Of a stretch of 25,027 nucleotides of DNA, positions 2,092-5,458 are shown one piece after another (position 1 is the stretch's first letter; the number at the start of each line of letters is the position of its first letter). The notes under the pieces were generated by a model. It did no database searches. It saw nothing but the letters and a program-made list of their open reading frames with translations, and was not told the origin of the DNA. This DNA comes from an uncultured Methanosarcinales archaeon. Its GTDB lineage: Archaea > Nanobdellota > Nanobdellia > Woesearchaeales > GW2011-AR9. The stretch covers positions 1 through 25,027 of the forward strand of contig CAZIMI010000001.1 of assembly GCA_964540325.1 (NCBI GenBank), given 5' to 3'. Made by a program: the position numbers and the translations under genes.

Positions 2092-3222
2092 TCACCATCT
2101 CAAATATCTATTAACTTCCTTTGTTGAAATTTCCTCTACAAACTTACTTTCCATTTGTTTTAACATCTTTTCCCTAAGTTTGTAAGTGTTAGCATTCCTA
2201 GCATAAGCACACCAACCTTCCAGAAAGTCGTAGATTTGGTCGTATTCAGTTAATTTTAATTCATATTCAAACAACAATTCTTTCAGTTTTCGCTCAAATT
2301 TCCCTAAATTTTTCTTTTTGAGAAGTTTGTGGTAGGGAAATATTCTTAACCCTAAGAATTCAACTCCTTTTTGAAGTAAAATTACTCTTGATTTTTCTGG
2401 ATGTGCTTGTAAAGATAATCTTTCTTGTAGAAATTGATCAATTATTGATTTGTATTTTTCTAGTTTTTTCTTTGAATTATCTAGAATTACAAAATCATCA
2501 ACGTATCTAATGTAATACTTGGCTTTTAGTTTGTGTTTCACAAACTGATCTAGTTCATTAAGATAGACATTCGCAAAGAACTGAGAAGTTAAGTTACCTA
2601 ATGGCATACCTTTGCCTTTTACTTTGGTTTTGTAGTTTGTTAAAATAGTTTTTATTAACCAAAATATTCTTTCATCTTTGATCTTCTTTTTAAGAATTGA
2701 AATTAGAACGTTATGATTAACATCTTCAAAATAATGTTTAATGTCTACTTTTAGAGCATAAGTAATCTTTGTATGATTCTTTGAAACTTTTCTCGCAAAG
2801 TAATCAAATCTTTCTATCGCTTTGAAAGTTCCTTTACCAATTCTGTTAGCGTAAGAATCGTAAATAAACTCTTTTTCCAGAATTGGAGCGATTATGTTAC
2901 ATAAAGCATGATGAACAATCCTGTCTCTAAAAGCAGACTTGCTGATTTTTCTTGTTTTTGGATCACGAAGAATAAAGTTTTCTAAAGGTTTTGGTTTGTA
3001 GATATGGAAAATTAGTTCGTTTCTTAACTTTGATAAGTTTTCTTCCAGCTTTTCTTCAAATTCAATAACATAATCTTTAAGTGTTTTCTTTTTCCTTGCT
3101 TTCTTGAAAGCAAGTTTAAGATTCTGATCAGCACAAAGCTTTGAATAAAGATTATCCACTAAAAAGGTGCAAGCACTTTTTTGGGATCCTAAAAATGATG
3201 GGGGTTGAAAAGTATTCTTCAT
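2092..3222 (-). CDS. DGR reverse transcriptase (RNA-directed DNA polymerase)
   Basis: Motifs FRDRIVHHAL, DIKHYF, GMPLGNLTSQFFANVYL (DGR-type GxxxSQ) and YIRYVDD (YVDD at 2494-2505); no endonuclease domain. The true start may be GTG at 3159 (VDNLYSKL...). Confidence 0.95.
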   Translation of the reverse strand: MKNTFQPPSFLGSQKSACTFLVDNLYSKLCADQNLKLAFKKARKKKTLKDYVIEFEEKLEENLSKLRNELIFHIYKPKPLENFILRDPKTRKISKSAFRDRIVHHALCNIIAPILEKEFIYDSYANRIGKGTFKAIERFDYFARKVSKNHTKITYALKVDIKHYFEDVNHNVLISILKKKIKDERIFWLIKTILTNYKTKVKGKGMPLGNLTSQFFANVYLNELDQFVKHKLKAKYYIRYVDDFVILDNSKKKLEKYKSIIDQFLQERLSLQAHPEKSRVILLQKGVEFLGLRIFPYHKLLKKKNLGKFERKLKELLFEYELKLTEYDQIYDFLEGWCAYARNANTYKLREKMLKQMESKFVEEISTKEVNRYLRW

Positions 3223-3390
3223 ATTTTAAAGTAAAATACTTTTACCTCATTTTTATGATTTCCCATAAAAACTCGCCCTCCAAACAATAATGAGCTACTG
3301 ATAGAATAAGCATAAAAACCTTGCGTAGTGCAAAAAGGGAATTTCATGCCCTTTTGCACGTAAATGCTTCGCATTTCCTGTGCTTGGATT
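3223..3390 (-). ncRNA. Structured TR-RT spacer (Sp) of the DGR RNA
   Basis: Inverted repeats at 3250-3271 (8 bp), 3328-3359 (11 bp with one bulge) and 3362-3376 (6 bp, GAA loop on the minus strand). Position matches the spacer 3' of TR in characterised DGRs. Confidence 0.65.
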
Positions 3391-3476
3391 ATTTGGAGAA
3401 AAGACCCGTTATTGTTTAGGTTATTGTTACCATTAGCATTTGAATTGTTATCTAGATTATTAACGAACAACGCCCT
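3391..3476 (-). repeat. DGR template repeat (TR)
   Basis: Minus strand reads AGG GCG TTG TTC GTT AAT AAT CTA GAT AAC AAT TCA AAT GCT AAT GGT AAC AAT AAC CTA AAC AAT AAC GGG TCT TTT CTC CAA AT, with 12 AAY codons. Aligns without gaps to 4747-4832 (offset 1356). Confidence 0.96.
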
Positions 3477-3730
3477 CCTCAGTAGCCCTCTCGCCTAATA
3501 ATCGCACAAAAAATACGAAAACTTTTGTATTTTTGTGTAGAAATGAAGTATTCTCTTCATTTCATGCACCACCATTTCAGATGCTCAAAGGAACATTGTT
3601 CCTTTGGCACCCCCATGAAAACGCTGTTTCATGGTGGGCAATAGCTGTCGTGATTGAATTTTATGACAAACAAGTATTAGTTCGCCGTAGCGAAAGGACG
3701 TGTAGCCCAAGCACTTCCTATTACCTCTTC
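3477..3730 (-). ncRNA. Hairpin-rich non-coding leader 5' of TR (putative 5' part of the DGR RNA)
   Basis: Stems at 3505-3537, 3540-3563 (9 bp), 3586-3606 (9 bp), 3613-3634 (8 bp) and 3681-3694 (5 bp closing a cUACGg tetraloop on the minus strand). No minus-strand ORF of 60 aa or more. The 5' end is a guess. Confidence 0.55.
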
Positions 3731-3796
3731 AAAAAAGAAGCAACGCAAGGCTCATTTAAAAGAAATATTAACAAGAATAAAAAGCTTTCTAAATTC

Positions 3797-3836: not shown

Positions 3837-4706
3837 ATGGTAAATGAAAAATCCAGTAAAAGTTTGGTTATTTTTCAGGGAAAAGGAATGAGAAGACTCT
3901 GGTATAATAATCAATGGTGGTTTTCTGTAGTTGACGTTGTTGCTGTCTTAACAGACCAGAAAGATTACTTAAAAGCCAGAAAATATTGGAATAAGCTTAG
4001 CCAAAGGCTAAGAGAGGAAGGAAGTGAGGTGGTGACAAATTGTCACCAACTGAAATTGCCTGCTGCTGATGGGAAATATTATGCTACGGATTGTGCAAAT
4101 ACAGAAACATTGCTAAGGATCGTACAATCAATCCCTTCTAAAAACGCAGAACCTTTCAAAAGATGGCTGGCAAAAGTAGGCTACGAACGTGTCCAAGAGA
4201 TTGAAAATCCTGAATTGGCTCAGAGACGAATGAAAGAACTTTATCGTAAGAAAGGTTATTCTGATGACTGGATTGAAAAACGGGTTCGTGGAATTGCTAT
4301 TCGTGATGAATTAACTGATGAATGGGATAAAAGAGGAGTCCAAACAAAGAAAGAGTATGCAATCCTCACTGCGGAAATTTCCAAAGCCACGTTTGGGTTG
4401 ACACCAGCAGAATATAAAGAATTAAAAGGGTTGGAGAGGGAAAATCTCAGAGATCACATGAATGATTTGGAACTGATTTTTACAATGCTAGGAGAAGCAT
4501 CAACAACAAAAATTGCGCGAAAAAAGAATGCTAAAGGCTTTATAGAAAATAAAGGTGCGGCACAGGAGGGAGGAATTGTTGCTGGTGTTGCACGAAAAGA
4601 ACTTGAGAAAAGAAGTGGTGAAAAAGTAGTTTCTGATGAAAATTATTTGCACTTGTCTGAGAAAAAGAAAAGGAAATTGATTAAGAAGAAAGAACTAAAC
4701 ATCTAA
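3837..4706 (+). CDS. BRO-N domain protein (phage antirepressor-like DNA-binding protein)
   Basis: RRLWYNNQWWFSVVDVVAVLT...YWNKLSQRL...QLKLPAADGKYYATDCAN...IVQSIPSKNAEPFKRWLA is the typical Bro-N family pattern. Confidence 0.85.
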   Translation: MVNEKSSKSLVIFQGKGMRRLWYNNQWWFSVVDVVAVLTDQKDYLKARKYWNKLSQRLREEGSEVVTNCHQLKLPAADGKYYATDCANTETLLRIVQSIPSKNAEPFKRWLAKVGYERVQEIENPELAQRRMKELYRKKGYSDDWIEKRVRGIAIRDELTDEWDKRGVQTKKEYAILTAEISKATFGLTPAEYKELKGLERENLRDHMNDLELIFTMLGEASTTKIARKKNAKGFIENKGAAQEGGIVAGVARKELEKRSGEKVVSDENYLHLSEKKKRKLIKKKELNI

Positions 4707-4721: not shown

Positions 4722-4732
4722 CGCCTACGGCG
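4722..4732 (-). promoter_or_regulatory. GC stem / GTA triloop hairpin just downstream of VR (candidate DGR target-recognition hairpin)
   Basis: Minus strand CGCC-GTA-GGCG, about 15 nt past the VR end and overlapping the target stop codon. The stem is only 4 bp. Confidence 0.5.
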
Positions 4733-5458
4733 TTTTCGGTTGGGCTACTTGGAGAAAAGACCCGCTATAGTCTAGGTTATCGTTACCATAAGCAACTGAA
4801 TCGTAATCTAGATTACCAACGAACAACGCCCTTAGTTGATCTTGAGCAGTATTCTCCAATACGTAAAAGCCCATTGCTTTTTCTGGTTGAGTTCCATCAG
4901 AATCTTTCAAAGCTTCAAAAACGATATCACGATGTTCTTTCAACAAAGCTAAATCATCTTCAAGAGCAGTTCTCCAACCAGAATGGTTTTCAATTTCCTG
5001 TTTAGTTAATAGTTCATTATATTTTCCACTATTACTATCTAACTTAACGCCAGACAAACTGTTATAGTTAACGGATAAAAAGTTTTCATCAAAATCAGAA
5101 TCAATAGTAATATTGAACGTTTTTCTCCATTTTCAGCAACAGAAGTATTAAAATCATCAACTCTTGCCCTAATAATTTCTTTAAAGGTTAAAGGGCGGTA
5201 AATATCGCTTCCATCATCTTTAATAAAAGTTGGGTGGGGAGAATCTGAAACATCAATACAAGCTTCTCTCAATGCTTTTACAGCAAGACCATAAGTATCT
5301 TGAACAGGTAAATGAACATATTTGCCATCAATTAATTGTGAAGAACTTGGCTGAGTTTGAGGCATAGGACTTGGTTCAGGCTTTGCACTAGGCAAATCAT
5401 CTTCCGGCTTCCACATCAAGTGTTCAAGCTGTTCTCTTGGAATATATTTGTCTGACAT
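4725..5458 (-). pseudogene. DGR target gene, split by a frameshift into ORFs 5039-5458 and 4725-5057
   Basis: The upstream frame is open 5458-5039 and the VR-bearing frame is open from 5132 to 4725. The second frame has no ATG upstream of the region they share and reads naturally from ITIDSDFDENFLSVNY, while the first frame degrades after NGEKRS. Total span is 734 nt, not a multiple of 3. Confidence 0.7.
4747..4832 (-). repeat. DGR variable repeat (VR) at the 3' end of the target gene
   Basis: 12 mismatches to TR in 86 nt, all at TR adenines (8 A>G, 4 A>T, 0 A>C). Encodes RALFVGNLDYDSVAYGNDNLDYSGSFLQV versus TR-frame RALFVNNLDNNSNANGNNNLNNNGSFLQI. Confidence 0.96.

Follow-up and report, generated by a model that had tools for sequence, protein, structure and literature searches.

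The window, by which we mean the whole 25,027-nucleotide stretch of DNA that was analysed, carries a DGR on its minus strand. The stretch around its template repeat (TR) is probably the non-coding RNA of a DPANN (Woesearchaeota-like) DGR without avd at the locus, consisting of the RT-16 RNA, the TR and a short post-TR tail. The main parts of the locus are:

2092-3222, minus strand: DGR reverse transcriptase (RT) gene, 376 aa (Pfam RVT_1, E 2.3e-25)
3384-3476, minus strand: TR, 93 nt, 85% identical to the variable repeat (VR)
3477-3750, minus strand: RT-16 RNA (Rfam RF03019), abutting the TR 5' end and holding two window-specific hairpin insertions
4740-4832, minus strand: VR at the 3' end of the target ORF, within ORF 4725-5057 (minus strand)

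The motif [I/L]GxxxSQ is the defining mark of DGR RTs, and the RT translation contains LGNLTSQ together with an RVT_1 domain. Compared with RTs from 80 DPANN loci, the window RT shows 47-72% identity. Because these relatives come from Woesearchaeota, Nanoarchaeota, Pacearchaeota, Micrarchaeota and Aenigmarchaeota MAGs, all of the DPANN group, the assignment to DPANN in the original prediction holds. The repeat pair is also typical of a DGR. All of the first 13 differences between TR and VR (up to 3389) fall on TR adenines; position 3388, where the TR has T and the VR has C, is the first that does not. The TR-adenine mismatch pattern was also seen in 27 plus 47 homologous loci. The target gene (4725-5458, minus strand) consists of two overlapping ORFs, 5458-5039 and 5057-4725, and a frameshift may separate its VR-bearing part from the N-terminus. 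Contigs from four DNA sequencing runs were either identical to the window or equal to the VR copy, with no variants and no joints. L033 is a close relative with 86% DNA identity in the RT and 97% in the TR. L120, a metagenome contig of the L033 type, carries VR copies at 1433-1519, 2359-2445 and 5074-5160 in paralogous target genes and a single TR. The L033-type lineage thus diversifies several targets.

No avd ORF was found between VR and RT in the window. The genome to which the window belongs, 81% complete, does contain one Avd-family gene (PF05635, 115 aa) on contig C55 (2033-2341; L122 1477-1824, minus strand). There is no RT within 1.5 kb of that gene, and the window RT is the only DGR-type RT found in the genome. 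Avd may act in trans from contig C55. In five other near-complete genomes with RT-16, a search for PF05635 gave no match. Accessory genes are absent in about 29% of DGRs (75/372) (PMC5758913).

The hairpin-rich leader at 3750-3477 of the minus strand was identified as RT-16. The cmscan match scores 53.2 bits over the full model (positions 1-158) against a gathering score of 50; a whole-genome search with stricter filters gave 40.9 bits over a shorter alignment. The features of RT-16 are present in the window, namely the closing stem, the CUACAC linker, the AUAAAAUNCA core and the 3' GGGCUAC. In the closing stem, GUCCUUUCGC pairs with GCGAGAGGGC over 10 bp, flanked by the CUACAC linker and the 3' GGGCUAC. 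The RT gene lies 255 nt downstream of RT-16 in the window and about 100-200 nt downstream in homologs. The whole 614-nt stretch folds far better than its shuffles (z = -9.6). RT-16 belongs to the RT-associated motifs described by Weinberg et al. 2017 (PMC5737381), where the link to DGRs was made only for RT-10, as the BPP-1 spacer, and where it was speculated that other RT motifs act in DGRs or retrons. The literature that we searched discusses no function for RT-16, and Paul & Eren 2022 and Wu 2017 describe no RNA upstream of the TR. The Rfam model ends at the 5' edge of the TR, gives no function and does not include the two long-range pairings, here called the inner and the outer helix, that are described below.

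Within the phylum, 35 of 151 sampled genomes contain RT-16. In the 27 loci that were fetched, a repeat whose mismatches to an upstream copy fall only or mostly on adenines begins right at the RT-16 3' end, so that the order VR, RT-16, TR, RT is conserved. A further 80 loci were gathered via the RT protein. Across both sets, those with a TR/VR pair and the RT-16 linker amounted to 71 non-redundant loci, and 70 loci were aligned with MAFFT (alignment A2). In this alignment the closing stem, our positive control, is paired in 97.6% of cells and shows strong covariation, with both-side changes at all 10 pairs. In every locus the TR ends AAUR (VR: GGUR) and is followed by bases without a VR counterpart. 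The distance from AAUR to the RT ATG has a median of 26 nt in the homologs, while the 167 nt of the window are the longest of all.

Two further observations concern the TR end. At the AAUR motif (window 3393-3390, VR 4749-4746), the VR almost always has GG where the TR has AA, the exceptions being AG in the window and GA in L097. Such uniformity far exceeds random adenine mutagenesis, and points either to strong selection or to a fixed difference between TR and VR, marking the boundary of what is copied. Eight loci (L003, L004, L007, L009, L076, L089, L100 and L118) contain an extra 16-45-nt TR hairpin (CUCG...CGAG) just upstream of the GGAAUA end. It is missing from the VR, and TR/VR homology resumes beyond it, so the cDNA or the RNA must somehow skip the hairpin.

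The original prediction proposed that two long-range helices, helix 1 and helix 2, cross each other and clamp the TR. Helix 2 corresponds to our inner helix. The strands under discussion are:

3743-3753, minus strand: outer helix, 5' strand, GAGCCUUGCGU, at the RT-16 5' end; 11-bp stem
3703-3714, minus strand: inner helix, 5' strand, GUGCUUGGG plus CUA of the linker CUACAC; pairs in a fixed register
3689-3699, minus strand: RT-16 closing stem, 5' strand, from the Rfam alignment
3485-3495, minus strand: RT-16 closing stem, 3' strand, ending 8 nt before the TR; overlaps the GGGC of helix 1
3479-3488, minus strand: helix 1, 5' arm, GGGCUACUGA; its GGGC also lies in the closing stem
3380-3391, minus strand: inner helix, 3' strand, TR end UAA plus TR-specific UCCAAGCAC; fixed register in 70 loci
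3316-3326, minus strand: outer helix, 3' strand, ACGCAAGGUUU, post-TR segment B; retained in L033
3292-3301, minus strand: helix 1, 3' arm, UCAGUAGCUC, in a lineage-specific spacer; no equivalent found in loci other than L033

Helix 2 is as predicted, pairing GUGCUUGGGCUA (3714-3703) with UAAUCCAAGCAC (3391-3380) on the minus strand. It comprises 8 Watson-Crick pairs, G3706.U3388, a C3705.A3389 mismatch and then 2 more pairs. Its G.U does fall on the first non-adenine TR/VR difference. The Rfam alignment assigns GUGCUUGG of helix 2 to the P1 hairpin of the RT-16 model, as its 3' arm, and GCUA opens the conserved linker CUACAC. Two linker adenosines, A3703 and A3701, are invariant in the 70 loci (columns A25 and A27 of A2).

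Covariation across homologous loci had been named as a check on the prediction, and for helix 2 it was positive. The homologs use a single register, in which the strand before the linker and the CUA of the linker pair with UAR and the TR-specific bases. Over the 11 bp of the inner helix, 79.9% of cells in A2 are paired compared with 62.8% after shuffling (0/500), and the covariation score is 0.531 compared with 0.244 (0/500); the sampled loci are kin, and such shuffle statistics overstate their independence. Sliding the partner strand by 1-3 columns reduces the paired cells to 30-45%. Compensatory changes on both sides are found at nine of the eleven pairs across the 70 loci. The clearest case is linker position 2 with TR-end position 4 (columns 24:567), which is U:A in 53 loci, C:G in 17 and unpaired in none, CUAC going with AAUA and CCAC with AAUG. 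Duplex energies behave likewise. Cognate strands of the 27 loci average -14.0 kcal/mol and non-cognate strands -8.2 (0/10000 permutations), the variable part alone gives -7.3 versus -4.0 kcal/mol (0/10000), and in the larger set the values are -9.4 and -5.2 kcal/mol (0/5000). G.U combinations outnumber A.C by 72 to 32, which indicates an RNA of the minus (sense) strand. When single sequences are folded without constraints, the MFE structure has the inner helix in its register in 39 of 71 loci and shows pairing between the 5' region and the post-TR region in 65 of 71. As the covariation spans 70 loci, helix 2 is far beyond chance. It is real and conserved, ties the TR 3' end to the RT-16 RNA upstream and uses bases that the VR lacks.

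The original prediction overlooked a second conserved pairing, the outer helix, as it did the identity of the leader as RT-16. The outer helix covaries across the family as well. Its energy is cognate-specific over 71 loci (-16.3 versus -11.7 kcal/mol for non-cognate strands, 0/5000 permutations). In the window it has 11 bp, is present in the MFE fold and reaches a pair probability of 0.91 in the unconstrained ensemble; in L033 its 3' strand comes straight after the inner helix. We considered an origin of the post-TR segments A and B as a duplicated palindromic hairpin and rejected it, because A and B do not pair specifically (-5.35 versus -5.62). The basal part of the P1 hairpin of the Rfam model, which the inner and outer helices partly replace here, competes with both and is weakly cognate-specific (-9.15 versus -7.45). 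P1 and the two helices may constitute a conformational switch that could operate, for instance, while the RNA is being transcribed.

Segment B often ends in RGGAC or RAGAC a few bases before the RT ATG (for example in L013, L017, L020 and L031), and the RT-16 5' end starts with UCC, UCU or CCU in homologs. The outer helix may therefore also hide the ribosome-binding region of the RT. This raises the alternative that the long-range helices mainly control the expression or stability of the RT mRNA, for instance by hiding that region, and do not position the template. We regard it as unlikely. The RGGAC/RAGAC-like end does lie a few nucleotides before the ATG in most homologs, the median TR-ATG distance is short, and the competing P1-like pairing has the weak cognate specificity that a switch would have. 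However, the last bases with TR/VR homology are themselves involved in the pairing with the invariant linker and in the U:A/C:G covariation, so that the inner helix is bound to the end of the template and not to the start of the RT, and in the window and L033 segment B is 70-95 nt away from the RT start. Control of RT expression and positioning of the template are not mutually exclusive.

In a pairwise alignment with L033 (A1), the window appears as an insertion-laden copy. Two features bear on its fold:

3504-3520, minus strand: 17-bp helix found only in the window, 5' strand; its partner is 3383-3367, and L033 lacks the insertions that hold the two strands
3328-3379, minus strand: 52-nt two-hairpin insertion between strands A and B, flanked by GCAC repeats; absent from L033

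The RT-16 core of the window has two hairpin insertions that L033 lacks. In all, four self-folding hairpin insertions on the minus strand (about 3637-3583, 3560-3504, 3379-3328 and about 3256-3150) are absent from L033, and two of the four are flanked by short direct repeats (GCAC, AAUC). These may be insertion scars, tiny mobile elements or small introns; by eye, no archaeal bulge-helix-bulge geometry was seen at the window-specific insertions. About 100 nt are extra at the RT N-terminus relative to L033, and the last of the four insertions displaces the RT start. The ancestral AUG (3266-3264) has become the first codon of an upstream ORF of 15 codons, and the stop of this ORF overlaps the new ATG of the RT at 3222. 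A Bro-N domain gene (289 aa, 3837-4706, plus strand) lies between the hairpin downstream of the VR and RT-16, on the strand opposite to the DGR. L033 has only about 50 nt at this site, so that roughly 900 nt have been inserted into the DGR cassette of the window. Because one core insertion and the post-TR insertion pair with each other over 17 bp, the MFE fold of the window does not contain helix 2. In the ensemble of the window, the inner helix has a probability of about 0.0003. Only 5.1 kcal/mol separate the conserved fold from the MFE in the window, and the MFE fold of L033 contains the conserved helices.

Helix 1 fared differently. The pairing itself is there as predicted, GGGCUACUGA (3488-3479) with UCAGUAGCUC (3301-3292) in 10 contiguous pairs including one G.U, and the four arms of helices 1 and 2 do cross. 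A free search for stems proves little in this RNA, because dinucleotide shuffles of the 546-nt RNA already yield about nine contiguous stems of at least 10 bp (mean 9.4, Watson-Crick plus G.U; 21 in the real sequence). At -17.1 kcal/mol, helix 1 is the best of 70 cognate pairs of arm and downstream region, and it also beats the window arm just 5' of the TR paired with the 160-nt downstream regions of all 69 other loci. These energies speak for the remaining part of the original prediction, namely that helices 1 and 2 form a pseudoknot or alternative conformers that clamp the TR, with helix 1 resembling the upstream:spacer stop duplex of BPP-1. So does its position directly 5' of the TR, which is that of the BPP-1 avd:Sp duplex. 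In L033 the 3' arm reads AUAGUGGCUU and has 4 substitutions, of which 3 keep pairing through sense-strand G.U and 1 breaks a pair, so that the L033 version has four wobbles; the duplex energy drops to -10.3, and this one comparison gives weak support.

The homologs argue otherwise. The 12 nt before the TR, paired with the 160 nt after the inner helix in 70 loci, give -7.73 for cognate and -7.49 for non-cognate combinations (1211/10000), thus no family signal, and for the UACNNNN tail between closing stem and TR no family-wide partner was found in the 5' region, the RT-16 core or the TR plus post-TR region. The 3' arm lies in a spacer that the other loci lack, the median distance from TR to ATG being 26 nt in the homologs against 167 nt here. 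Only the window and L033 carry the 3' arm. A DNA search with the spacer through 401 genomes of the order returned one real relative, L033, and a pattern scan of metagenomes returned two contigs, both identical to L033, so the arm is known in two distinct sequences; a scan of viral contigs with the 5'-arm pattern found nothing. Seven of the ten helix 1 pairs consist of the conserved GGGCUAC opposite a GUAGCYC element that is nearly identical to the VR end (AGUAGCCCA), and the 3' arm may therefore be a relic copy. There is also a structural conflict. According to the Rfam alignment, the RT-16 closing stem ends with the GGGC of helix 1, so that these four bases of the 5' arm lie in a stem paired in nearly all cells of A2. 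As a pseudoknot, helix 1 costs four closing-stem pairs or shrinks to 6 bp, and forcing it in a nested fold of the window costs 12.6 kcal/mol. The pseudoknot or two-conformer reading consequently seems improbable to us. Helix 1 is probably a lineage-specific complementarity and not part of the core of the mechanism. It is best treated as unproven, while helix 2 is kept and the outer helix and closing stem are added. That all of these complementarities are chance, or DNA-level features such as inverted repeats and insertion scars with no RNA role, is hardly credible: long stems are indeed common in shuffles of this AU-rich RNA and the window has several recent insertions with short-repeat flanks, but the compensatory changes of the inner helix, the strong cognate specificity and the G.U excess all run against it. 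This reading is disfavoured for helix 2 and the outer helix and possible for helix 1.

Since helix 1 has no counterpart in the family and helix 2, the outer helix and the closing stem are conserved, the family-conserved fold is nested and not crossing. In this fold, segment B pairs with the 5' end of RT-16 to form the outer helix (3753-3743 with 3326-3316), and the inner helix links the strand before CUACAC to the TR end (3714-3703 with 3391-3380). The closing stem follows 3 nt further on (3699-3689 with 3495-3485), with its 3' strand ending 8 nt before the TR. With the inner helix adjoining the closing stem, the TR forms a loop between two neighbouring duplexes. By analogy with BPP-1 and with retrons, the inner helix may be a duplex of the template:primer type through which the TR 3' end is brought to the RT active site, and one of the invariant adenosines of the linker, A3703 or A3701, would be the candidate primer. 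As the stop for reverse transcription, the closing stem is a better candidate than helix 1, and the RT-16 RNA might provide the scaffolding that in BPP-1 comes from Avd and the downstream spacer. Of the original clamp, the tie between the TR 3' end and upstream RNA is supported and helix 1 as a general clamp is not. Likewise, the proposal that the helices set the start and stop of reverse transcription is plausible for helix 2, which sits at the position of a start-defining duplex, and is not supported for helix 1 as a stop. Taken together, we consider this explanation as a whole, from the nature of the RNA and its three nested helices to the priming and stop roles suggested by analogy and the exclusion of helix 1 from the core, to be probable, though well short of secure.

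To our knowledge, BPP-1 is the only DGR for which the mechanism of reverse transcription is understood, and there it requires Avd and a downstream spacer RNA. The clamping of a TR by long-range duplexes is already known from that system. What is new relative to the papers that we searched is the assignment of this role to RT-16, the upstream placement and the covariation across the TR. An orphan Rfam motif thereby gains a testable role in abundant DPANN DGRs, with predicted template-holding helices, candidate priming adenosines and cDNA start and stop sites. If true, a small RT and one RNA, with no second protein, would offer a compact start for targeted-mutagenesis tools.

With its TR-RT core and no accessory gene, the window resembles Architecture A of Wu et al. 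2017 (PMC5758913), the accessory-gene-free DGRs for which an Avd-independent mechanism was proposed. It differs in that this survey describes no RNA element replacing Avd. Retrons offer a second comparison. In retron msr-msd RNA the template is followed by a strand (a2) that base-pairs with a 5' strand (a1). Immediately 3' of a1 come the priming nucleotide and then structured RNA, and reading of the template begins at the end adjoining the stem. The inner helix, the linker adenosines and the RT-16 core show the same layout. Priming from a 2'-OH in retrons has been summarised (PMC8867640). Retrons differ in priming from a guanosine and in producing msDNA, which serves in defence, whereas the window has a DGR-type RT, an adenine-mutagenised TR/VR pair and a target gene.

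The comparison with BPP-1 is the closest. In its DGR RNA (10.1101/2023.10.23.563531, a cryo-EM preprint), TR117-129 forms a duplex with Sp47-56 and Sp A56 primes; 2 nt further on, Sp59-70 pairs with avd369-379 just upstream of the TR as a stop element. Duplexes between upstream and downstream regions have also been predicted in 207 Avd-bearing DGRs. In the RNA predicted for the window, the TR likewise forms a loop flanked by neighbouring duplexes, of which one holds the TR 3' end and the other the bases just 5' of the TR. A single RNA segment supplies both partner strands, and it does so in the 5'-to-3' order of BPP-1, with a gap of 3 nt (CAC) in the window and 2 nt in BPP-1; an adenosine stands at the end of the primer-type strand. 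The differences are in arrangement and in parts. BPP-1 (Rfam RT-10) has the order avd 3' end, TR, spacer; the window locus lacks avd and gave no RT-10 match at E<=1. A downstream primer-supplying spacer of the BPP-1 type does not fit the window family, where the covarying partner of the TR end is upstream and the homologs have a median of 26 nt between TR and ATG. The partner segment lies upstream of the TR, inside RT-16, and not in a downstream spacer, and the layout is thus a circular permutation of that of BPP-1. It is possible, and we put this forward tentatively, that RT-16 does in DPANN DGRs what the spacer RNA does in BPP-1, in a circularly permuted and retron-like form. These DGRs would then work without Avd, prime from the 2'-OH of a linker adenosine and stop at the closing stem, at the 5' edge of the TR. 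On such a retron-like reading only the TR could be the donor, because the pairing uses bases that have no counterpart in the VR.
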